Source: Geotalea daltonii FRC-32 (GTDB lineage Bacteria; Desulfobacterota; Desulfuromonadia; Geobacterales; Geobacteraceae). From it: 32,000 bases of DNA. Shown here in pieces: positions 22,380 to 32,000 of the stretch (position 1 is the first letter of the stretch; the number at the start of each line of letters is the position of its first letter). A program made the translations under genes and the position numbers. The stretch lies in the NCBI RefSeq assembly GCF_000022265.1, contig NC_011979.1, positions 630,001 to 662,000 on the forward strand, given 5' to 3'. The notes under the pieces were generated by a model. That model was not told where the DNA came from. It saw nothing but the letters and a program-made list of their open reading frames with translations, and made no database searches.

Positions 22380-22634
22380 CTATAAAAAGCCCCGATCGAC
22401 GAAGCTGAGAAAGGCTCCGTCACCGATGATGATATGATCGAGGACCTTGATGCCCAGGAGGTCGCCTGCTTCCTTCAGCCGGCGGGTGATCTCCATGTCT
22501 TCGCGACTGGGGGTCGGGTCGCCGGTGGGGTGATTGTGCACGAGGATAACCGCCGCTGCCGACTCCCGCACTGCCTGATTGAAGACCTCCCTTGGATGGA
22601 CGATGCTTTTGTATTGTGAACCATTTGACCAAAG
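22380..22634 (-). pseudogene. radC: radC (JAMM/MPN-domain protein) 3' fragment, truncated at the island junction
   Basis: The in-frame reading is …NGSQYKSIVHPREVFNQAVRESAAAVILVHNHPTGDPTPSREDMEITRRLKEAGDLLGIKVLDHIIIGDGAFLSFVDRGFL. This is only about the last third of a typical RadC. A TAA at 22635-22637 closes the frame exactly where the base composition changes. Confidence 0.75.
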
Positions 22635-22758
22635 TTAGTTATTAGTTAAAAGGTATACTGTATTCTAATTCAGTGTACCTTTTAATCAAAAAAACGAAAC
22701 GATACCGCGAAAACTGAATTCGACATTTAATGCAAAAATGCTGTAGTTTTATTGCTTA

Positions 22759-22788
22759 TTGTGGCATACTGCTTCGCCAATTTAAAAT
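22759..22788 (+). promoter_or_regulatory. Candidate sigma70-type promoter of the HD operon (TTGTGG-18-TAAAAT)
   Basis: Read by eye. The -10 box lies 27 nt upstream of the HD start codon and the -35 box is weak. Confidence 0.3.
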
Positions 22789-22814
22789 GGTCATTCTTGC
22801 GAGCAAGGTCAACA

Positions 22815-24104
22815 ATGCCACAGTTTTTCGAAATTCGCGACCCTATTCATGGCTTCGTAAAGATTACGGAGTGGGAACGGGACATCATTAATCAACCTGC
22901 CTTTCAACGGCTACGCAGGATTAAGCAACTTGCGTGGACCGACATGACATATCCTGGTGCTACACATTCTCGATTCGAACATTCACTGGGGGTTATGCAT
23001 GTAGTGACAATGCTCTTTGATTCGATCTGCGAGAGACAGCACGATTTTCTTTCCAGTCGTGAATTGCGGTATACAGTAGGTTCGTTGGAAAGGCTTCGCT
23101 GTCTCGTTCGATTAGCGGCTCTCTTACATGACATCGGTCATCCACCTTATTCGCATGCTGCCGAAGAAACTTTTCCGATTGATCCTGAAACTAATGAGCC
23201 GTACCCCCATGAAGAGTATTCTGCTGCTATAGTTAAATTTGAACTTGCAGACGTTATTGAAAATCATCCTTCGAACCATTTTCGCTTTAAAGTAGGTGAT
23301 GTCACCGCTTTTTTCACAAATGGAGCATGTAGAGAATGCTTGTTGTGGAAAGACCTTCTGTCTAGCCAAATGGATGGTGACAGAATGGACTACCTCTTGC
23401 GAGATTCGCATCACGCTGGAGTGAATTATGGCAAGTATGACCTAAACCGAATTGTAGCGACCATACGTCTTATAGAACGCCCCGACTCTGATGGCTACAC
23501 CATGGGCATTGATGAGGATGGAATTCATGCAGCTGAGGGCTTAATTCTTGCACGGTACATGATGTTTACACAGTTATATTTCCACAAGACGAGGGTCATT
23601 TACGACTACCATCTTGTAGAGGCCTTGAAGGAAATATTGACCGAATGTGGAGGTCATTTCCCTTTGCCAACAAGTGCCGACGACATTAAAGAATACTTGA
23701 AATGGGACGATTGGAGAGTTGGTGGAGCAATATCAGAAGGTAAAGGCGGCACCCATGGGCAGATCTTAAAAAATCGCCATCACTTCAGATTGTTGCATCA
23801 GACATCTGAAATACCTTCTATCCCAGAACTTGAAGACATTGATCGGCTTGAAGGTGTGTTGGCACCATTAGGAGCCATTAGGAAAAACGCCGAAAAGTCC
23901 TGGTACAAATTCAAGCAGCTGAATGACGAAATCCTTGTTCTGTCGAACTCCGGAAGTGCCAGATCGTCTGTTCTGCCTCTTTCCGTAAGATCGCCAGTAG
24001 TACAAGGTTTGAAGTCCGTCAACCAAAGCAGAATATACGTGCCCATCGATAAACGAGATGAGGCAATTGAGATTCTAAAAAGACAACAAGGGGAGGGGAC
24101 CTGA
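22815..24104 (+). CDS. HD-domain phosphohydrolase of the SAMHD1 / EF1143 / YwfO type (putative dNTP triphosphohydrolase)
   Basis: Motifs present: FEIRDPIHGFVKI, FQRLRRIKQL, THSRFEHSLGVMHV, LLHDIGHPPYSHAAE, MDGDRMDYLLRDSHHAGVNYGKYDL. Start set at MPQFFEIRDP (ATG at 22815) rather than the TTG at 22752. Confidence 0.8.
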   Translation: MPQFFEIRDPIHGFVKITEWERDIINQPAFQRLRRIKQLAWTDMTYPGATHSRFEHSLGVMHVVTMLFDSICERQHDFLSSRELRYTVGSLERLRCLVRLAALLHDIGHPPYSHAAEETFPIDPETNEPYPHEEYSAAIVKFELADVIENHPSNHFRFKVGDVTAFFTNGACRECLLWKDLLSSQMDGDRMDYLLRDSHHAGVNYGKYDLNRIVATIRLIERPDSDGYTMGIDEDGIHAAEGLILARYMMFTQLYFHKTRVIYDYHLVEALKEILTECGGHFPLPTSADDIKEYLKWDDWRVGGAISEGKGGTHGQILKNRHHFRLLHQTSEIPSIPELEDIDRLEGVLAPLGAIRKNAEKSWYKFKQLNDEILVLSNSGSARSSVLPLSVRSPVVQGLKSVNQSRIYVPIDKRDEAIEILKRQQGEGT

Positions 24105-24105
24105 G

Positions 24106-24639
24106 ATGAGCGGAACTCCATGGAAAGATTACGGTCTGATTTCCTATATTTCACAAAATGTAACTGATTTAGGGAAAACGAAATTACACAAGTTGGTCTA
24201 TCTCATCAAAGAGGTAGGCAAGGTGCCGGTTGGCTTTAATTTTCGCTTTTACAATTATGGCCCCTACTCGGACAATCTTGCTGAGACACTGGATTTTGTA
24301 ACTTCTTTGCAGGGCGTTAAGATGAATTATGATTCCACTGCAAATATGTATGAGATCTCTGCAGGCGAAAATGCAGCAAAGCTTGTTGAAAAAGCGACTG
24401 CTGAACTGGAACCGAATAAACCTACAATTGATGGAATTCTGACTGCTTATGGAAACAAAACAGCTAAAGAACTAGAACTGATAACGACCATACTGTATGC
24501 AAATAAGAATTATGAAGCTAAATCCGTTGAAGCCTTAACTCACACAACTAAAAATTTAAAGCCGAAGTTTAGCCTCACAGAAATTAGAGCATCCATTGGT
24601 CAATTACAAGCATCTGACTTGCTTTCTTTAACACAATAA
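24106..24639 (+). CDS. YwgA-like / DUF4065 (Panacea, SocA-like) domain protein
   Basis: 177 aa. GKTKLHKLVYLIKEVG…FRFYNYGPYSDNLAETLDFV matches my memory of the KLQKLxY…YGPYS signature of this superfamily. GGGAGGGG RBS. Starts 1 nt after the HD gene stop. Confidence 0.45.
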   Translation: MSGTPWKDYGLISYISQNVTDLGKTKLHKLVYLIKEVGKVPVGFNFRFYNYGPYSDNLAETLDFVTSLQGVKMNYDSTANMYEISAGENAAKLVEKATAELEPNKPTIDGILTAYGNKTAKELELITTILYANKNYEAKSVEALTHTTKNLKPKFSLTEIRASIGQLQASDLLSLTQ

Positions 24640-24644
24640 TTGAA

Positions 24645-25058
24645 ATGCTCAATTCATCGGATACAACTTATCTGAGTCTGCTTGAAAAGGCAGACTCAGC
24701 AAGGGAAAATGCTTACTGCGCTTATTCCAATTTCAAAGTTGGCGCGGCTCTGTTAACCAAGTCTGGTAACATTATTTTTGGGTCTAACGTTGAAAATGCC
24801 TCATATGGACTAACAAACTGTGCAGAAAGATCTGCAATCTTTGCAGCGATATCACGAGGTATTAAGCCTCAGGAAATTGATGCCATAGCTATTAGTGCAA
24901 CAGGTGAAAACTTTTCTCCTTGTGGTGCTTGTAGACAGGTTATTTTTGAAATGGGGTCTCAAATAGCTGTAATTTTCAGGTTTAACGGTAAAGTTGTAAT
25001 TGAACGCATTAGCGACCTGCTCCCGTACAGTTTCACGATAACTATCAATGGCCAATAA
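24645..25058 (+). CDS. Cytidine/deoxycytidine deaminase (small homotetrameric CDA type)
   Basis: 137 aa. AYSNFKVGAALL…, catalytic and zinc motifs NCAERSAIF and SPCGACRQVIFE. Confidence 0.85.
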   Translation: MLNSSDTTYLSLLEKADSARENAYCAYSNFKVGAALLTKSGNIIFGSNVENASYGLTNCAERSAIFAAISRGIKPQEIDAIAISATGENFSPCGACRQVIFEMGSQIAVIFRFNGKVVIERISDLLPYSFTITINGQ

Positions 25059-25329
25059 CCTCTTTATTTCATACGACCTTATGAATCCCGGTCAGAATTA
25101 TGACACTGTCATTGATGCCATAAAACTATTAGGCGCTTGGGCTAAAATCCATCAATCATTTTGGTATGTTAGCTCAAATTTTTCGGCCAAGGATGCGGCT
25201 GAACAGGTATGGCGGACCATGGATAGCAATGATAAGTTGCTTGTTGTAAACTCTTCCACCAACGATGCTTATTGGTATAACCTTCCCGGTAACGTTTCCG
25301 AACACATCCAACAACACTGGCGTGGATAG
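25048..25329 (+). CDS. 93-aa protein of unknown function, last gene of the HD/CDA operon
   Basis: Overlaps the CDA gene by 11 nt. MANNLFISYDLMNPGQNYDTVIDAIKLLGAWAKIHQSFWYVSS…DKLLVV suggests an alternating beta-alpha-beta (ferredoxin/Cas2-like) pattern. No family recognised. Confidence 0.45.
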   Translation: MANNLFISYDLMNPGQNYDTVIDAIKLLGAWAKIHQSFWYVSSNFSAKDAAEQVWRTMDSNDKLLVVNSSTNDAYWYNLPGNVSEHIQQHWRG

Positions 25330-25415: not shown

Positions 25416-25949
25416 ATGGTAATGCGTCCCATAATATGCGTCACCTGGCTGGTTGCTCTTTGTTTCATGCCAGTATATGCTGCACCAATTCCCGCAAATG
25501 GTACTGTTGAAGCATTTTTTAGCCCGACCGGTGGTTGCACAGAATCCATCATCCGCGAAATCAATGGTGCACAGTCGGAAGTCTTGATTCAGGCTTACTC
25601 GTTTACATCTGCTCCGATAGCCAAAGCTATAATTGCCGCAAAGAGGCGGGGGGTCAAAATCGAGGCTGTACTGGACAAAAGCCAGCGGTCGGCGAAGTAT
25701 ACTGCGGCAACATTTCTCACAAATGCCGGTATTCCACTGTTGATAGATGATCACCATGCCATAGCACACAACAAAATTATCATCATAGACCGGAATACGT
25801 TGATTACCGGCAGCTTCAACTTTACCAAGGCAGCGGAGGAAAAGAACGCTGAGAACCTTTTAGTCATTAAAAACAACCAACCCCTTATATTGCAATACCT
25901 TCAGAACTTCGAACGTCATAGAACCCACTCAGAGCCTTACAAGCGCTAG
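25416..25949 (+). CDS. Secreted phospholipase-D-family endonuclease (Nuc-like)
   Basis: Signal peptide (ICVTWLVALCFMPVYA/AP) and a single HKD motif (HNKIIIIDRNTLITGSFNFT). The size of 177 aa is as in plasmid Nuc nucleases. Confidence 0.8.
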   Translation: MVMRPIICVTWLVALCFMPVYAAPIPANGTVEAFFSPTGGCTESIIREINGAQSEVLIQAYSFTSAPIAKAIIAAKRRGVKIEAVLDKSQRSAKYTAATFLTNAGIPLLIDDHHAIAHNKIIIIDRNTLITGSFNFTKAAEEKNAENLLVIKNNQPLILQYLQNFERHRTHSEPYKR

Positions 25950-26034: not shown

Positions 26035-26937
26035 ATGCATATGATTGAAGCGGTTGAAACTATTCAGAATCAACCGGCAATAGACTATAATGTACCGGTA
26101 AACATTGTTACGGGAGACGTGCGTCAACGCCTGTCCGAGCTTCCCGAAAAAATGTTCCGTTGCTGTGTTACCAGTCCACCGTATTGGGGCCTTCGCGACT
26201 ACGGAGCCGAAGATCAAATCGGCTCTGAGATGACAGTTGAAGAATACATAAGTGACCTGACAGCTGTATTCCGCGAAGTTCGAAGGGTTCTGGCCGATGA
26301 TGGCACCTTTTGGCTCAATATTGGAGATTCATACACAAGTGGTAACCGGACTTGGCGTGATCCTGATAAAAAAAATCCTGCTAGGGGCATGACATATCGT
26401 GCACCAACCCCAGAGGGTTTGAAGCCGAAAGATTTAATCGGCATCCCCTGGAAACTCGCATTTGCGTTGCAATTAGATGGCTGGTATCTCCGGTCTGACA
26501 TTATCTGGAATAAACCAAACTGCCAACCAGAGTCTGTCAAAGACCGCCCCACTCGGTCACATGAATATGTGTTTTTGTTGACGAAATCCGAAAAGTACTT
26601 TTACAATTGGGAAGCTGTTCGGGAGCCTGCAAAAACAACAAAGCATTATCGGAGCAAACGGACGGTATGGGATATCAATACTGAACCCTTCAGTGAGGCT
26701 CATTTTGCGGTATTTCCGCCTGGACTCGTTGAACCCTGCTTGATGGCTGGCTCAGAGCCTGGCGATTTTATTCTGGACCCATTTTTTGGGTCAGGGACTG
26801 TCGGGGTGGTGTGCTTGAGGTTAGGAAGGAAGTGCGTTGGTGTTGAACTGAAACCAGAATATGTCGAAATTGCAAAAAAACGACTTCAGCCTGAAGCTAA
26901 TCTATTCCTACCACAAGAAGTAATAAGAGTAGCTTAA
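26035..26937 (+). CDS. Type II DNA methyltransferase, beta-class amino-MTase (SPPY motif, probably N4-cytosine)
   Basis: Motif IV (CCVTSPPYWGLRDYG) precedes motif I (ILDPFFGSGTVGVV). AAGGA RBS. Confidence 0.85.
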   Translation: MHMIEAVETIQNQPAIDYNVPVNIVTGDVRQRLSELPEKMFRCCVTSPPYWGLRDYGAEDQIGSEMTVEEYISDLTAVFREVRRVLADDGTFWLNIGDSYTSGNRTWRDPDKKNPARGMTYRAPTPEGLKPKDLIGIPWKLAFALQLDGWYLRSDIIWNKPNCQPESVKDRPTRSHEYVFLLTKSEKYFYNWEAVREPAKTTKHYRSKRTVWDINTEPFSEAHFAVFPPGLVEPCLMAGSEPGDFILDPFFGSGTVGVVCLRLGRKCVGVELKPEYVEIAKKRLQPEANLFLPQEVIRVA

Positions 26938-27683
26938 CAAGCGAACTTCCATTCGCCATGGACTGTACACAAGCCTTTGCGTAAGTTTTTGATTTGCAAT
27001 TTTCTCTCGCCGCCACCGTCGAAGTATAATTCAAAGACTAATTCTCCATCCTCGAAGACTCGACAGTAACCTGGTTTTGGAAATTGGGTGCTGTCGTTGC
27101 ACATTTCAAAGCTGCCATTTGCGGCTTTTTGCAACAAAGACTTTGGTATTTCAACTAATTCGTAATGCCAATCTTTTGGTGTCCGAGACAAAGTGCGTAG
27201 AGTGAAAATCCGCTGGTAGGCAGCCATATGCCTAAAAAAGCTATCTCGTAATCCATGCAAATCCTCAACCTTATCTCCCCAAACACCTTTACCAAGTTCC
27301 ATGAACTTCGATATATGGACTTTGTCCACCTTCAGGCTCCGGTCTGCTTGCGTCTTTAGGGACACCGGTATGCCCATTATAGTGATATCATGTCCTGGAT
27401 TGCACTTATCTGCCAGCTTGGCAGAAACCCCACACCGACTTAAGGCTTGCTCCATGGCGTATTCAAATTTATCCTTGCTAAATGCATCCTTGGATAAGCA
27501 ATGGTGAATGCGCAAGATGTCCCCAAACGCCTCAAGAAAATCTTCTGAAACGATATCAGAAACAGGATTCCTCCAATATGTGCCAGGTGTTGTCAACCTG
27601 CATGCAATACTTTGAATGCACTCAATTTGCTGCTGGGAAAGTCCAGGAAGAGCACTGGAGAGAGTGTTAAGGCAGATTGGCAT
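26934..27683 (-). CDS. Probable type II restriction endonuclease, partner of the SPPY methyltransferase
   Basis: 249 aa, convergent with the MTase with a 4-nt overlap at the 3' ends. Possible PD…SxK nuclease core (NPGHDITIMGIPVSLKTQ). Has its own strong promoter. Assignment is by context only. Confidence 0.5.
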   Translation of the reverse strand: MPICLNTLSSALPGLSQQQIECIQSIACRLTTPGTYWRNPVSDIVSEDFLEAFGDILRIHHCLSKDAFSKDKFEYAMEQALSRCGVSAKLADKCNPGHDITIMGIPVSLKTQADRSLKVDKVHISKFMELGKGVWGDKVEDLHGLRDSFFRHMAAYQRIFTLRTLSRTPKDWHYELVEIPKSLLQKAANGSFEMCNDSTQFPKPGYCRVFEDGELVFELYFDGGGERKLQIKNLRKGLCTVHGEWKFAC

Positions 27684-27866: not shown

Positions 27867-28181
27867 ATGCGGATGCAGTCAAAAAATGTCAGCTTTGGAA
27901 CTTATATAGCCGAAGTACGCAAGGCAAAGACGATGAGTCAGAAGGAAGTTGCTGCAAAGCTGGATATTTCCCCGCAATACCTGAACGATATTGAACATGA
28001 TAAACGGTCCCCATCCTCTCCGCAGCTTATTGATCTTCTTGCTACTACACTTGAAATAAGTGCTGATTATTTGTCATATTTGGCTGGTAGAATCCCTGAA
28101 GAAGTCAAGGAGAGAAAACTTGACCCAGTCACCTTCGAAAAAGCCATGGTTGCATTTCGTAAAGCAACGGAGAAAAAGTAG
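27867..28181 (+). CDS. XRE-family helix-turn-helix transcriptional regulator (CapH/ImmR-like)
   Basis: 104 aa. HTH_3 pattern: FGTYIAEVRKAKTMSQKEVAAKLDISPQYLNDIEHDKRSPS. Confidence 0.85.
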   Translation: MRMQSKNVSFGTYIAEVRKAKTMSQKEVAAKLDISPQYLNDIEHDKRSPSSPQLIDLLATTLEISADYLSYLAGRIPEEVKERKLDPVTFEKAMVAFRKATEKK

Positions 28182-28183
28182 CC

Positions 28184-28873
28184 ATGCCGAAAATGGTTCG
28201 CGACATAACTGGTAAGTTCAATCAACGGCCACATTACGAACCGCGCGAACTTGATATGGAATGTGAGAAAATTATCTGTGATTTTCTCCGCACCCTTTAC
28301 GGCCAAGTCTCATTTCCTGTCTCAACCGATGATCTAACCAAACTCGTTGAAAAATTTGCATCTTCCTTCGATCAGTACGCTGATCTTTCAGAATATGGTG
28401 CTAACGTTGATGGCCTCACCGAGTTTTACGCGAAGGGAAAGCCGAAAGTTTCGGTTGCGGCAAGGCTTTCCGAATCTTCTACATACGAGAATCGGTTCAG
28501 GACAACCATGACGCATGAACTGTTTCACGCAATTTTCCATGACTATCTCTATAAAATGGAACTGGTTTCTCCAGCGTCAAAGAATGGTGCCTTGCAAATT
28601 TGCAAGCGTGACGACATCATGTCCAAGTCAAAAGCCTCCGGTGCCACCGACTGGATGGAGTGGCAAGCGGGTTATGCTTGTGGAGCGTTCTTGATGCCTG
28701 CCTCTTTTCTTAAAAAGACCGTTGAGGCATACTGCACCGTGGCGAACGTGACAAACCCGATAAGTCAATCAAATCCTCGAAGCGATGAACTCATTGAAGC
28801 GGTTATGTCCGCTTTTCAGGTCTCAAAAGACGCTGCACGGGTCCGGTTGTTGGTTACAAACCACCTGCAATAA
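28184..28873 (+). CDS. ImmA/IrrE-family zinc metallopeptidase (CapP-like)
   Basis: 229 aa. HEXXH motif (MTHELFHAIFH) with downstream EWQAGYACGAFLMP, which resembles the ImmA/IrrE third-ligand region. Starts 3 nt after the XRE gene stop. Confidence 0.7.
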   Translation: MPKMVRDITGKFNQRPHYEPRELDMECEKIICDFLRTLYGQVSFPVSTDDLTKLVEKFASSFDQYADLSEYGANVDGLTEFYAKGKPKVSVAARLSESSTYENRFRTTMTHELFHAIFHDYLYKMELVSPASKNGALQICKRDDIMSKSKASGATDWMEWQAGYACGAFLMPASFLKKTVEAYCTVANVTNPISQSNPRSDELIEAVMSAFQVSKDAARVRLLVTNHLQ

Positions 28874-28886
28874 CAACTGCTTAAAA

Positions 28887-28915
28887 AGCGAGAAAAAATA
28901 TTCTTGCTTTTTTTG
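28887..28915 (+). terminator. Rho-independent terminator after the XRE-ImmA operon
   Basis: AGCGAGAA-AAAATA-TTCTTGCT (8 bp, one G-U pair) followed by TTTTTTGTT. Confidence 0.55.
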
Positions 28916-28924
28916 TTCTCCTCA

Positions 28925-28949
28925 GATACGCTGATTAGCGTATCAGCAG
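28925..28949. promoter_or_regulatory. Operator-like box B upstream of the Ubl operon
   Basis: Two interleaved inverted repeats: GATACGCT/AGCGTATC (28925-32 and 28937-44) and GCTGAT-N6-ATCAGC (28930-35 and 28942-47). The 20-mer at 28930-28949 matches box A at 17/20. It lies 32 nt upstream of the Ubl ATG. Confidence 0.5.
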
Positions 28950-28980
28950 ATACACAAATTTCCCGAAGGAGAACAAACCG

Positions 28981-29238
28981 ATGGAGCGAGAAAAGGATCA
29001 GCAGCACGACGACCACGGCAAGGAGAATGTAACCATCACGATTGACGATAATCCGTGGACGGTACACCGAGGGCACCATACCGTTGCAGAGCTTAAGACG
29101 CTGGCGGGAGTCCCTCTAGCCTATGACCTCGACAGGGTAATCGACGGCAAGTTTGAGCCATTGCCCGACGATGGGGGTGTCACCATCAAAGGAGGCGAAA
29201 TCTTCATCAGCCACGTAAAAGACGGCTCGTCGTCCTGA
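28981..29238 (+). CDS. Single-domain beta-grasp ubiquitin-like protein ('Multiubiquitin'-family, BilA-like)
   Basis: 85 aa. VTITIDDNPWTVHRGHHTVAELKTLAGVPLAYDLDRVIDGKFEPLPDDGGVTIKGGEIF fits the bacterial Multiubiquitin-domain pattern. AGGAG RBS. It is the first gene of an E2-JAB-E1 operon. Confidence 0.65.
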   Translation: MEREKDQQHDDHGKENVTITIDDNPWTVHRGHHTVAELKTLAGVPLAYDLDRVIDGKFEPLPDDGGVTIKGGEIFISHVKDGSSS

Positions 29239-29250
29239 AGGAGGCTCCAC

Positions 29251-29595
29251 ATGGATTTTCCACAGGAACAAATCGATGAAATGAAGGCAACGTTTCCCGG
29301 TATCAGCCACTCAGAGGAAGGCGGATTCGATTTCTTCTTCATACCGGGACTGAAACTGCCGTCGTCCTGTTCGCCGGAATCAGTTGACGTTCTTTTCTGC
29401 CCGAACCAGCGAGGAGGGTATAACTCGCGTTTGTACTTTGCTTCAATGGTCCAGTCCGGAAAGGCCCTTAATTGGAACGGTCAGAACGAATTCATCCTGG
29501 GCCGTCGGTGGTTTGCCTTTTCATGGCAGTTGCCACCCGCAGAAAGACGTCTTTCGCAGATGGTTGCGCTACACCTGAGAGGATTAATATGCTGA
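29251..29595 (+). CDS. Prokaryotic E2-like ubiquitin-conjugating protein (Prok-E2_E type, BilB-like)
   Basis: 114 aa. AAGGAGG RBS. Candidate catalytic Cys in VDVLFCPNQRGGYNSRLYF. The position between Ubl and JAB is as in Bil/ISG15-like operons. Confidence 0.55.
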   Translation: MDFPQEQIDEMKATFPGISHSEEGGFDFFFIPGLKLPSSCSPESVDVLFCPNQRGGYNSRLYFASMVQSGKALNWNGQNEFILGRRWFAFSWQLPPAERRLSQMVALHLRGLIC

Positions 29596-30110
29596 TTCAC
29601 GTCAAGATGACCAGGCATGTTTACGAGAAAATGCGGGCGGACCTGAACCGCCCGCATGATTTCGCCTACGAACGAGTGGGATTCATCTTTGCCCGGAAAG
29701 ACACCGCCGACAAAGACGCAATCCTGCTTCTTGCGACGGAATATTACCCCGTGCCGGATGTTCATTACATCGATGACCCGAAAGTCGGGGCAAAGATCAA
29801 CTCTTCGGCAATCCGCAGCGTTATGGAAAGAGCTTACTCCTCAAAAGAGTGTATATTGCACGTCCATCAACATGACCATTCGGGCGCGCCGCGCTTTAGC
29901 CGGCTTGATCGGCTGGAATACAACAAGATGATACCGTCTTTCCACAATATCGGAGGGGGAGCAATTCACGGTGCTCTGGTGTTCAGTCTGGACAATGCCG
30001 TTGGCTTAGTCTGGACATCAAAACACGATTCGCCCGAACCGGTCAGAAAACTAACCATTGTCGGCTATCCCATAGAGACGCTAAAGCCGGGGGCAGGATT
30101 ATATGTGTGA
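29589..30110 (+). CDS. JAB/MPN (JAMM) metallopeptidase, Prok-JAB type (BilC-like deconjugating/processing peptidase)
   Basis: Start set at MLIHVKM (ATG at 29589), overlapping the E2 stop. Conserved Glu (AYERVGFIF) and a JAMM-like HVHQHDHSGAPRFSRLD. Confidence 0.7.
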   Translation: MLIHVKMTRHVYEKMRADLNRPHDFAYERVGFIFARKDTADKDAILLLATEYYPVPDVHYIDDPKVGAKINSSAIRSVMERAYSSKECILHVHQHDHSGAPRFSRLDRLEYNKMIPSFHNIGGGAIHGALVFSLDNAVGLVWTSKHDSPEPVRKLTIVGYPIETLKPGAGLYV

Positions 30111-30909
30111 CGACAGATACGACAGGCAGTCCTTTTTGGGAGAGAATTCACAGGCTAAGATTGCAGCATGTACCGTCGGGATCATTGGCCTTGGTGGTGG
30201 CGGGTCGCATGTAGCCCAACAGCTTGCGCATGTGGGATTTCAGAAATATGTTCTGTATGACCCGGACATGCCGGAAGACTCGAACCTCAATCGGCTAATT
30301 GGCGCAACGGTTAGGGACGTAAAAAATAAAGTTCCAAAGGTCCAAATCGCCAGAAGGGTCATACGCGGACTACAGCCGAGGGCTAAAATCCAAATGATAA
30401 GGGAGCGCTGGCAAGACAACCCACTCCCGCTCGGGAACTGTGACATCATTGTCGGTTGTGTGGATGGATATAAAGGGCGACATGAGTTGGAAACTTTTTC
30501 CCGCCGCCACCTCATGCCGTACATCGACATCGGAATTGATGTGGTTCAGGTTGATCCCCAACCGCCAGTCTTAAGCGGTCAGGTGATTGCATCTCTTCCC
30601 GGTGGTCCGTGTATGTGGTGCTTGGGTTTCTTAACGGAAAAGAAACTCGCCGCCGAAGCGAAAAAGTATGGCGACGCGGGGCACAATCCGCAGGTGGTTT
30701 GGGCGAATGGGGTGGTTGCCTCTGCCGCAGTTGGTATTGCGGTCGATTTAGTGACGGGGTGGACTGGATCGGCTCAAGATGTTGTTTACTTGTCGTATGA
30801 GGGCAATTCAGGATTGGTGCTACCGCACAAGCGATTGACTGTCGTGGATAGGTCATGTCAGCATTTCCCGCATGATCAGGTGGGAGAGGCAAGGTTTATT
30901 CCACTGTAG
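30103..30909 (+). CDS. ThiF/MoeB-family E1-like adenylating enzyme (BilD-like)
   Basis: RYDRQ, Rossmann IIGLGGGGSHVAQQLAHVG, YDPDMPEDSNLNRL, and a Cys pair GGPCMWC. It overlaps the JAB stop by 8 nt. Confidence 0.85.
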   Translation: MCDDRYDRQSFLGENSQAKIAACTVGIIGLGGGGSHVAQQLAHVGFQKYVLYDPDMPEDSNLNRLIGATVRDVKNKVPKVQIARRVIRGLQPRAKIQMIRERWQDNPLPLGNCDIIVGCVDGYKGRHELETFSRRHLMPYIDIGIDVVQVDPQPPVLSGQVIASLPGGPCMWCLGFLTEKKLAAEAKKYGDAGHNPQVVWANGVVASAAVGIAVDLVTGWTGSAQDVVYLSYEGNSGLVLPHKRLTVVDRSCQHFPHDQVGEARFIPL

Positions 30910-31585
30910 CCATCGAATACTCAACATTGCCTAACAGGTAGGCATAACTGATCTTACCTTTCTTTGAGTCTATCCTTTCTTGGACGATTGCTTTGTCGAT
31001 GCCGATAATCATACCCTTTCTGATCTTTCCCCCCTGTAGGATGGCCCAATAATAGATATCTTCATATAATTTGGTTCTGGATATTTCCAAATCGCTCTTG
31101 GCAAGTGCCTCAAGCATCTTTTCAACAGCGTAATTCTTCTTTACATACCGTTTTAGGGCAACCAATCTTTTCAGAAAATCGTCCTCTCTCTTGATGCGCC
31201 TATTAACTGTCTCAAGCTGGCGATTTGTATACCTCGTCAGGTCAATGCCAGTACGCTTTTTAACCTGTGCATCTGAACCATAAGACAGTCTTTGGTAGAA
31301 TATATTCCTGGCCTGCGATAATTCATCCTTCGCTAGGTAAAACTCTGGCGATAACTTGTTAATATAATTAAATAACTTCATTGAGTAATGCAGCATGCGG
31401 CATTCGTTTATGTCGTACTCATATGCCCGAGAACATAACAGTGCGAGTAGTGGCCTCCAGTACATGGGGTCAGAATTGGTCTTGATTATTTCGAACGTAA
31501 TGTAAAACCATTGTCGCCTGAGGCTTGGTTCCGCAGCGCTCAACTCCTCTTTCGTCATATTGTCGTGGTTCATGACTATGGTCAT
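30896..31585 (-). CDS. Hypothetical 229-aa protein, translationally coupled to the serine recombinase
   Basis: ATGA start/stop overlap with the recombinase at 31582-31585. No recognisable motif. The 3' end overlaps the E1 gene by 14 nt, convergently. Confidence 0.5.
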   Translation of the reverse strand: MTIVMNHDNMTKEELSAAEPSLRRQWFYITFEIIKTNSDPMYWRPLLALLCSRAYEYDINECRMLHYSMKLFNYINKLSPEFYLAKDELSQARNIFYQRLSYGSDAQVKKRTGIDLTRYTNRQLETVNRRIKREDDFLKRLVALKRYVKKNYAVEKMLEALAKSDLEISRTKLYEDIYYWAILQGGKIRKGMIIGIDKAIVQERIDSKKGKISYAYLLGNVEYSMATVE

Positions 31586-32000
31586 GATGCTCTTCCAATG
31601 TCGTGGTCACGCAACTTGCGCGAATGGATAAAGTTGTAGACTGTCCCCCGTGAGACTTCAAAGATTTTTGAAATTGACGCCATCGAAACCTTTTTACGTA
31701 GCAACTCCCTGATCTGCTCCTCTACCCCATCCAGCTTGCTTGCGCTTGTCCGGCCTTTCGGCCTGCCAATTTTCACCCCTGCCGCTTTCTTTGCCTCCAG
31801 TGCTCTTTTTGTTCGCTCAGATATTAAATCCCTTTCCAGTTCAGCGAACAGCGAAAATAACGTGACCATGACCTTGCTTTGGACATTCCCGTTGCCACTC
31901 ACCGTCATGTTCTGTTTGATAGCTATGAGCGCCACCCCCATTTCCGTCAACTGCTTAACAATGTTCAGTACCTCAACGGTGCTTCTGCCGATCCGTGAAA
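31582..32000 (-). CDS. Serine recombinase (resolvase/invertase family), C-terminal part; the 5' end is beyond the window
   Basis: Hand extension of the frame to the window edge gives …SRIGRSTVEVLNIVKQLTEMGVALIAIKQNMTVSGNGNVQSKVMVTLFSLFAELERDLISERTKRALEAKKAAGVKIGRPK… plus a C-terminal HTH (ISKIFEVSRGTVYNFI). Confidence 0.85.
   Translation of the reverse strand, partial: SRIGRSTVEVLNIVKQLTEMGVALIAIKQNMTVSGNGNVQSKVMVTLFSLFAELERDLISERTKRALEAKKAAGVKIGRPKGRTSASKLDGVEEQIRELLRKKVSMASISKIFEVSRGTVYNFIHSRKLRDHDIGRAS

Follow-up and report, generated by a model that had tools for sequence, protein, structure and literature searches.

Introduction

Depletion of nucleotides is an antiviral principle common to bacteria and humans, in the latter case through SAMHD1, and the bacterial deoxynucleoside triphosphate (dNTP) triphosphohydrolases (dNTPases) validated as effectors so far are, to our knowledge, Dgt-like. 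How such enzymes are kept harmless before infection is an open question, which the Clover system is only beginning to answer. In Clover an anti-phage dNTPase, CloA, is encoded with a nucleotidyltransferase, CloB, and thus represents a dNTPase effector with a dedicated restraining partner (PMC12265719). Single-gene anti-phage dGTPases and dCTP deaminases have also been described (Tal et al., 10.1101/2021.04.26.441389), deaminase-based depletion of deoxycytidine (dC) has been validated in phage defence for AvcID (PMC10511110), and Panacea domains are known from the PanAT toxin-antitoxin systems (PMC8832971). Here we analyse four adjacent genes in a 32,000-nt stretch of the Geotalea daltonii FRC-32 genome (NC_011979.1, positions 630,001-662,000 of the forward strand; hereafter the window, to which positions refer unless a locus is named). 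They encode a predicted HD-domain dNTPase (gene 1), a YwgA-family protein (gene 2), a cytidine deaminase (gene 3) and a small protein with a predicted Cas2-like fold (gene 4), and an earlier note on this DNA had proposed that they form an undescribed nucleotide-depletion defence operon. We find that genes 1 and 2 belong to a widespread, conserved pair, on which the quartet is a clade-specific elaboration, and we tentatively favour, with slightly less than even confidence, the interpretation that this mobile four-gene cassette serves in nucleotide-depletion defence.

Among described systems, Clover provides the closest comparison. Both consist at their core of two genes, for an HD-superfamily dNTPase and a dedicated accessory protein that restrains it, or in the present case would restrain it; Clover defends by dNTP depletion, as the present pair is proposed to do. 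The partners differ in kind, as gene 2 encodes a small, non-enzymatic protein resembling Panacea and the C-terminal domain (CTD) of DarG, rather than a Pol-beta nucleotidyltransferase which makes an inhibitory nucleotide, and neither a Pfam scan of genes 2 to 4 nor the fold search with gene 2 found a nucleotidyltransferase domain. Restraint would here be exerted between proteins and not through a nucleotide signal, and a Geotalea-type clade adds the deaminase and the Cas2-fold gene. Relative to known systems, the effector would be of a familiar kind and its partner of a new one, with the Geotalea-type clade contributing a new second enzymatic step. The supposition that this combination had not been described stands as far as the searchable literature extends: our search found no account of an HD dNTPase that has a YwgA/Panacea partner, whether or not a cytidine deaminase accompanies the two, an earlier mention in a 2023 survey of nucleotide-targeting effectors (NAR, gkad879) being possible, and the main text of two Panacea/NetFlax papers makes no mention of an HD dNTPase partner.

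Results

Architecture and Composition of the Locus

The four genes are co-directional and tightly packed (Table 1), with a 1-nt gap between genes 1 and 2, a 5-nt gap between genes 2 and 3, and an 11-nt overlap between the end of gene 3 and the start of gene 4. The open reading frames (ORFs), coordinates and junctions agree in full with those given in the earlier note, and every sequence motif quoted there was found in the translations. The Shine-Dalgarno sequence of gene 2, GGGGAGGGG, lies inside the end of gene 1, 8 nt before the gene 2 ATG, and no terminator-like hairpin was detected on the + strand within the four-gene block. Homologues of gene 1 are ~429 aa long and their alignment begins at residue 1, which points to the ATG at 22815 as its likely start; a longer version, starting from a TTG at 22752, is unsupported.

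The composition of the locus sets it apart from its surroundings. Nowhere in the window is GC content lower than in the kilobase at 24-25 kb (0.392, compared with 0.55-0.62 in the core), which bears out the placement of these genes in the most AT-rich part of their island, and GC content at third codon positions (GC3) is 0.33-0.46 in genes 1 to 4, compared with 0.70-0.79 in the adjacent core genes encoding Lon, an M48 peptidase and a DUF898 protein. Identical copies of the locus are present on several metagenome contigs. A megablast search of the cassette against plasmids and Escherichia coli genomes returned no match, and tRNA and Rfam scans of the window detected no RNA genes.

Conservation of the HD+YwgA Pair

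To place the locus in a wider context we sampled 80 loci from species-representative genomes, retrieved with a gene 1 profile, together with 47 metagenomic loci; 122 of these had room for gene 2. A gene 2 homologue stood directly beside the HD gene in ~100 of the 122, with a single exception to its downstream, same-strand position. Hosts of the pair include Acidobacteriota, Planctomycetota, Chloroflexota, Bacillota, Pseudomonadota, Ignavibacteria, Nitrospirota, Spirochaetia and others, as well as one Methanothrix. The loci lacking gene 2 hold the most distant HD relatives (31-37% identity); gene 2 is also missing beside the Firmicutes HD genes of the YwfO type. Across loci, the identity of gene 1 to its window copy rises and falls with that of gene 2 (Spearman 0.61, n=68). 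In all 32 loci with full flanks the GC content of the pair was below that of the flanks, by up to 20 points, and GC3 was below that of the flanking ORFs in 30 of the 32 (median difference 0.09, maximum 0.41).

No family recurred among the 124 proteins encoded by the two nearest genes on each side of the pair. Several flanking genes were common to only one pair of loci, which came from related metagenome-assembled genomes (L030 and L031), two other pairs of loci shared a single flanking homologue, and the same-strand genes downstream of the pair were unrelated to each other. The idea that other HD+YwgA lineages carry a different conserved third gene was rejected, as none was found. The HD+YwgA pair is thus the real conserved unit. 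Its GC content, nearly always lower than that of the flanking DNA, and the lack of conserved neighbours give it the look of a two-gene module that is mobile and toxin-antitoxin-like.

The YwfO-type HD genes of Bacillus thuringiensis and Listeria (L151 3962-5266, L152 3959-5281) present a different picture. They stand in conserved housekeeping synteny, beside genes encoding a ywhB-like tautomerase, a site-2 protease, and YwhD or DUF1934, and no YwgA-like ORF was found at these loci. Two branches of the HD family can therefore be told apart, one housekeeping-like, which shares this synteny and lacks YwgA, and one mobile and YwgA-linked. A Firmicutes precedent, the B. subtilis ywfO-ywgA pair mentioned in the earlier note, is only partly upheld: the JGI label for homologues of gene 2 is indeed YwgA, whereas the YwfO loci of B. 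thuringiensis and Listeria lack such a gene.

A Clade-Specific Four-Gene Cassette

The full quartet was found in the window and at three further loci, L087, L085 and L086, where genes 1, 2, 3 and 4 are, in that order, 95, 82, 75 and 83% (L087), 79, 65, 65 and 66% (L085), and 68, 53, 56 and 59% (L086) identical to those of the window; in L086, gene 4 had been missed by the gene caller. Two loci with gene 1 homologues of 65-68% identity (L088 and L089) carry only the HD+YwgA pair, and no deaminase or gene 4 homologue was found beside the HD gene in the other ~120 HD loci. Gene order and tight spacing are kept in every quartet locus, with genes 3 and 4 overlapping or abutting in all copies. Nucleotide homology between the window and L087 (blastn, 22759-25328) extends from the promoter-like site 5' of gene 1, which forms the left edge of the common DNA, to the stop codon of gene 4. 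In a neighbor-joining tree of gene 4 the window, L087 and L085 copies group together, and the placement of the L086 copy is not settled.

The settings of these loci differ completely. The window copy lies in a defence island. In L085 the quartet is followed by a phage-type integrase gene and then by a cluster encoding a Ser/Thr kinase, an FHA protein and a PP2C phosphatase (L085 2955-8097); in L087 it lies where the tail module of a prophage or tailocin ends (SLT and baseplate spike genes), the cassette GC content being 0.39-0.48 against 0.56-0.64; and in L086 it forms a 4-kb low-GC islet among housekeeping genes. With the same genes in the same order in three other, unrelated flanking contexts, the arrangement is far beyond chance. 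The quartet is a narrow, clade-specific elaboration, whose four genes co-diverge and move together among four contexts, and genes 3 and 4 were added to the pair only in the small Geotalea-type clade. The view of the four genes as one system is accordingly right insofar as they recur as a unit in four loci, and too broad insofar as the general unit is the pair. Membership of a conserved salvage operon was rejected for the cassette, which has no conserved neighbour and is of foreign composition.

Gene 1 Encodes a Predicted SAMHD1-Clade dNTPase

Gene 1 matches the Pfam families HD (PF01966, 40.1 bits; cut-off 22) and HD_assoc_2 (PF19276, 32.3 bits; cut-off 23.1). Its best relatives of solved structure are Aquifex Aq_1910 (2HEK, 6e-44, full length), the Enterococcus faecalis dNTPase EF1143 (6e-39) and SAMHD1 (~1e-23), with 2Q14 and 9MR6 also among them; 2HEK, the closest, was itself deposited as a 'hypothetical protein'. 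The motifs RFEHSLGV, HDIGHPPYSH (LLHDIGHPPYSH), HEE and DGDRMDYLLRD align with EF1143, 2HEK and SAMHD1, and the catalytic and metal-binding residues (H...HD...D, RFEHS, H-E, DxDRxDYxxRD) are invariant in 29 homologues; at E<=1e-10 the number of homologues of gene 1 exceeds 7,960. By contrast, the curated anti-phage dGTPase model (NCBIfam NF041026) scores only 27.3 bits against a cut-off of 400, over residues 24-119 (PADLOC/NCBIfam). Profile searches and structural alignments thus agree with the proposal that gene 1 belongs to the SAMHD1-like clade: by its sequence it is a dNTP triphosphohydrolase of the SAMHD1/EF1143/Aq_1910 clade, with predicted activity, and it falls outside the recognised defence dGTPase (Dgt-type) family, because models of that type match weakly and over the N-terminal ~100 residues only.

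Gene 1 shares domain architecture and catalytic residues with EF1143, SAMHD1 and Aq_1910. Unlike these enzymes, which have been studied as stand-alone, allosteric homeostatic or restriction enzymes, its subfamily is set apart by an obligate YwgA neighbour and by foreign composition. The likeness to the anti-phage dGTPases would lie in immunity by destruction or conversion of deoxynucleotides, which also underlies defence by dCTP deaminase and AvcID; the difference lies in protein type, SAMHD1/EF1143 in the present case rather than Dgt.

Gene 2 Resembles the Toxin-Binding Domain of DarG

Gene 2 is 100% identical to Geob_0580, for which UniRef gives the label 'Antitoxin SocA-like Panacea domain...'. 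Its homologues of ~34-65% identity are labelled 'uncharacterized protein YwgA' by JGI, and the family name used here rests on that label. The match to Pfam SocA_Panacea (PF13274) reaches 22.8 bits (E 1.9e-4), under the gathering cut-off of 25.7. Stronger matches were obtained to the C-terminal part of DarG (2.6e-14 in PADLOC; 3.9e-10 to the NCBIfam DarG model), where gene 2 covers only positions 178-327 of the 329-position PADLOC model. An AlphaFold2 model built on 46 homologues (mean predicted local distance difference test score, pLDDT, 95.3) gave, in a Foldseek search, one significant match in the Protein Data Bank (PDB): the DarG CTD in the DarT-DarG complex 7YK3, over the whole length (template modelling score, TM, 0.71; E 7e-6). 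The remaining matches were weak and of winged-helix type, and the sequence alone found no meaningful match in the PDB, so that only the fold comparison is informative. The model therefore assigns gene 2 the Panacea-like fold of the toxin-binding CTD of the DarG antitoxin, which, together with the JGI label, sustains the original description of gene 2 as YwgA- or Panacea-like, the Pfam Panacea match remaining sub-threshold. By analogy, gene 2 is predicted to be a binding partner or regulator of gene 1.

An exhaustive profile search recovered 6,098 YwgA-family clusters (at 50% identity) at E<=1e-3 and 1,997 at E<=1e-10, nearly all members being stand-alone proteins of 170-195 aa. As in DarTG and PanAT, the small protein with the fold of the DarT-binding domain of DarG is encoded immediately 3' of a potentially toxic enzyme. 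Unlike DarTG, the cassette contains neither a macrodomain nor DarT (DUF4433), as judged by Pfam scan, and unlike PanAT its Panacea-like protein falls under the Panacea threshold.

Gene 3 Encodes a Canonical Cytidine Deaminase

Gene 3 scores above the equivalog cut-off for homotetrameric cytidine deaminase (TIGR01354, 130.6 bits against 113.65) and well above that of NF004064 (130 bits against 74). It matches the cytidine deaminase (Cdd) structure 3DMO at 3.6e-35, and its zinc-binding and catalytic motifs, CAE and PCGACRQ, align with 3DMO and with 7ZOB. With its motifs complete, it is the intact deaminase that it had been taken for: by family assignment, a canonical small, tetrameric cytidine/deoxycytidine deaminase predicted to act at the nucleoside level. 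No match was found to the defence deaminase models of PADLOC, including those for dCTP deaminase and AvcD. In contrast to dCTP deaminase and AvcID, a nucleoside-level Cdd would act only downstream of a dNTPase, and the RNA antitoxin of AvcID is absent here.

Gene 4 Belongs to a Widespread Mobile-Element Family

The earlier note had regarded gene 4 as an orphan, which proved incorrect. It has 72 homologues at cluster level, which are almost without exception of exactly 93 aa and in which the N-terminus (MANNLFISYDL) is strongly conserved; it matches phrog_1090 over its full length (6e-26), and by tblastn it is present in 85 records of plasmids and 49 of phages. Family members were annotated at loci including L141 (4001-4279), L189 (3501-3779) and L134-L150, and databases often mis-annotate them as 'Cas2'. 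The AlphaFold2 model of gene 4 (pLDDT 91.9) has the topology beta-alpha-beta-beta-alpha-beta-beta-alpha, and the top ~20 Foldseek matches are nearly all Cas2, with probabilities >0.9, TM scores of only ~0.45-0.6 and E values of 0.01-0.1. No family in Pfam, NCBIfam or PADLOC, and hence no Cas2 model, matched gene 4, and a profile of 54 family members found neither Cas2 nor any other meaningful match in the PDB. In its model gene 4 resembles the Cas2/VapD superfamily in the ~90-aa, ferredoxin-like beta-alpha-beta-beta-alpha-beta core and in the conserved Asp of strand 1 (SYDL), and departs from Cas2 in the lack of a match at sequence level, in the modest TM scores, and in that no cas1 gene was called in the window or in the ten gene 4 contexts whose gene calls were inspected. 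We term it Cas2-fold rather than Cas2, because Foldseek modestly favours Cas2 and the sequence profile does not.

Homologues of gene 4 with 50-65% identity sit elsewhere without HD or Cdd genes. In Aeromonas the gene follows a P2 Ogr gene and precedes those of two CyanoTRADDas_TM proteins; in Sphingobium it comes directly after genes for an AAA_15/21 ATPase and a weak DUF4435 protein, an architecture like that of PARIS; and in one further case it overlaps a gene for a 311-aa unknown protein adjoining IS1595. Other sites include an SU10-like phage, an Ochrobactrum prophage, a position beside a ribonucleotide reductase gene, an integrative and conjugative element (ICE) next to another AAA_15 operon, a Mannheimia phage and small plasmids. 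The family was thus twice seen to adjoin PARIS-like AAA_15(+DUF4435) operons. P2-like phages carry the gene in a variable region that has the tail-fibre genes on one side and the tail-sheath genes on the other, and it was found in P2-like prophages of 100 of 5,426 complete E. coli genomes. Gene 4 is therefore an autonomous mobile-element gene which frequents defence hotspots, and its functional tie to genes 1 to 3 is uncertain. The possibility that it is a dedicated partner of the deaminase was rejected, since its homologues occur in many other contexts, mostly alone. A literature search on stand-alone phage Cas2-like proteins returned nothing pertinent, and phrog_1090 represents a common gene of phages, plasmids and ICEs with no known function.

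Discussion

Because gene 2 is homologous to the DarG CTD, because Panacea proteins provide a precedent (PMC8832971), and because the genes follow the order of toxin then antitoxin with translational coupling, we infer that gene 2 would bind gene 1 and hold it inactive or otherwise restrained, in the manner of type II toxin-antitoxin or abortive-infection pairs. If this restraint were lost, for example upon phage infection, gene 1 might, like EF1143 and SAMHD1, hydrolyse dNTPs to deoxynucleosides and triphosphate, and so starve DNA replication. The deoxycytidine released by dNTPases such as gene 1 is, from the established enzymology of both families, a substrate of deaminases such as gene 3. 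Once recruited in the Geotalea-type clade, gene 3 would turn the released dC into deoxyuridine (dU), such that the dC pool could no longer be re-phosphorylated to dCTP and would be diverted towards dU and deoxythymidine. Gene 4 may be a mobile-element gene captured along with gene 3, with a regulatory, nucleic-acid-binding or autonomous role.

If this interpretation is correct, the HD+YwgA pair would constitute a second, protein-based solution to the restraint of dNTPases, and would tie the SAMHD1 clade proper to bacterial immunity, while the added deaminase would make for the first two-step metabolic drain, in which a nucleotide-level enzyme is followed by a nucleoside-level one. The YwgA family is large (1,997 clusters at E<=1e-10), and the pair would, if validated, be worth adding to defence-annotation tools. 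A more ambitious version holds that HD+YwgA is a large, unrecognised family of toxin-antitoxin-like immune modules, spanning thousands of clusters at 50% identity, most bacterial phyla and some archaea, in which a DarG-CTD/Panacea-type protein gates a SAMHD1-type dNTPase through direct binding, with the Geotalea-type clade as the first case in which a second enzyme, the deaminase, was added for an irreversible conversion of dCTP to dC to dU, and with the Cas2-fold protein, drawn from phages and plasmids, as a further sensor or regulator; this we consider possible, if doubtful.

Several observations weigh against a role in defence. The score of gene 1 with the curated models for anti-phage dGTPases is far too low (27 bits, cut-off 400), gene 2 falls under the Pfam Panacea gathering threshold, gene 3 cannot be told from a housekeeping Cdd, and gene 4, which occurs mostly alone elsewhere, may be unrelated to the other three genes. 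Contact between the products of genes 1 and 2 is a prediction from fold analogy and adjacency, and the same genomic picture would be expected if gene 2 activated, or simply stabilised, a dNTPase of homeostatic function. The 124 neighbours of the pair are mostly metabolic or housekeeping proteins; ~8-9 of them have a strong PADLOC match (DpdF, a type I S subunit, PsyrT, DrmMI, PDC-S26, PDC-M45 and mad3), so that enrichment of defence genes near the pair is modest at best, in a comparison with no matched control. The pair is also rare in viral sequence, with three IMG/VR contigs carrying both genes, and among annotated phages and plasmids the matches to gene 1 were all distant and partial (<=37% identity).

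The strongest alternative is that the cassette serves nucleotide-pool homeostasis or salvage, with no immune role. The HD enzyme would trim excess or damaged dNTPs with YwgA as a structural or regulatory subunit, the deaminase would recycle dC or cytidine into uridine and thymidine salvage, and the whole would spread as a metabolic accessory operon. The textbook nature of the Cdd is in keeping with this, as are the established housekeeping roles of EF1143-type and Dgt-type enzymes, the conserved housekeeping synteny of the Firmicutes YwfO-type genes, the mostly metabolic neighbours of the pair, and the position of the L086 cassette among housekeeping genes. The consistently foreign GC and GC3 of the pair and its lack of a conserved neighbourhood are harder to accommodate, however, and the sole structural relative of gene 2 is the toxin-binding domain of an antitoxin. 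The YwfO loci that are of housekeeping type are, moreover, those without YwgA, and the quartet itself is found in a defence island, by an integrase and at the end of a prophage. On balance we regard salvage as unlikely.

The pair might instead act purely as a type II toxin-antitoxin (addiction) module and serve to stabilise mobile DNA, with genes 3 and 4 as co-transcribed passengers and no dedicated anti-phage role. The toxin-then-antitoxin order with translational coupling and the DarG-CTD/Panacea-like fold of gene 2 would be expected of such a module, scattered, low-GC, single-copy insertions are typical of toxin-antitoxin loci, and the cassette is found within islands and prophages. As many such modules are themselves defence systems, the mechanism overlaps with that of nucleotide-depletion defence; but the long co-divergence of the four genes argues that genes 3 and 4 have been kept by selection rather than as neutral passengers, and an allosteric-type enzyme of 429 aa would be an unusual addiction toxin, which together make pure addiction quite improbable.

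To a mosaic of three non-cooperating units under a shared promoter, namely HD+YwgA, a captured cdd and an autonomous Cas2-like gene (for example for superinfection exclusion, anti-defence or a nuclease), we give little credence: gene 4 homologues do mostly stand alone, with their own spacing or orientation, in P2-like prophages, phages, an ICE and plasmids, and the ~120 other HD+YwgA loci all lack cdd and gene 4, yet every quartet locus retains gene order, tight spacing and parallel divergence, the shared DNA ends exactly at the gene 4 stop, genes 3 and 4 overlap or abut in all copies, and gene 4 of three of the four quartet loci forms one clade.

Neighbouring Genes in the Window

Table 1. Features of the four-gene locus and of its surroundings (positions in the window).
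Feature	Position	Strand	Remarks
Gene 1, predicted HD dNTPase	22815-24104	+	429 aa from ATG
Gene 2, YwgA-family protein	24106-24639	+	177 aa
Gene 3, cytidine deaminase	24645-25058	+	137 aa
Gene 4, Cas2-fold protein	25048-25329	+	93 aa
Promoter-like site GTGGCA-16-TAAAAT	22761-22788	+	5' of gene 1; consensus scan only, 9/12 matches
RadC/JAB-domain C-terminal fragment	22380-22571	-	63 aa; left edge of low-GC island; Pfam
PLD-family NucT/Nuc-like nuclease	25416-25949	+	87 nt downstream of gene 4; also matches DISARM DrmC models
N6_N4 methyltransferase of SmaI-type type II restriction-modification system	26035-26937	+	convergent with and overlapping R.SmaI
R.SmaI	26934-27683	-	PF17411, 580 bits
CapH-like helix-turn-helix protein	27873-28181		
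CapP-like M78 peptidase	28184-28873		
Weak Multi_ubiq protein (85 aa), two unknown proteins (114 and 173 aa), ThiF/E1 protein	within 27873-30909		
Protein without family match	in 30896-32000	-	229 aa; overlaps end of ThiF gene on opposite strand
Serine resolvase	in 30896-32000	-	follows the 229-aa protein; runs off window end

The setting of the cassette in a defence island is sound, and the description of a foreign cassette beside restriction-modification and ubiquitin-like systems is borne out by its low GC3 and by the SmaI pair, the CapH- and CapP-like regulators, and the ubiquitin-like and E1 genes that follow it (Table 1). At the left edge of the island, the truncated RadC gene is possibly an insertion scar. 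The PLD-family nuclease immediately downstream of gene 4 was considered as a further member of the cassette and rejected, being absent from the other quartet loci; its N-terminus is hydrophobic and, judged by eye, signal-peptide-like. Further downstream, the match of the ThiF/E1 protein to CBASS E1-E2 proteins falls on their E1 part, and the region 27873-30909 has the look of a defence operon for ubiquitin-like conjugation under the control of regulators. The mobile backbone of the island is probably marked by the serine resolvase at the end of the window.

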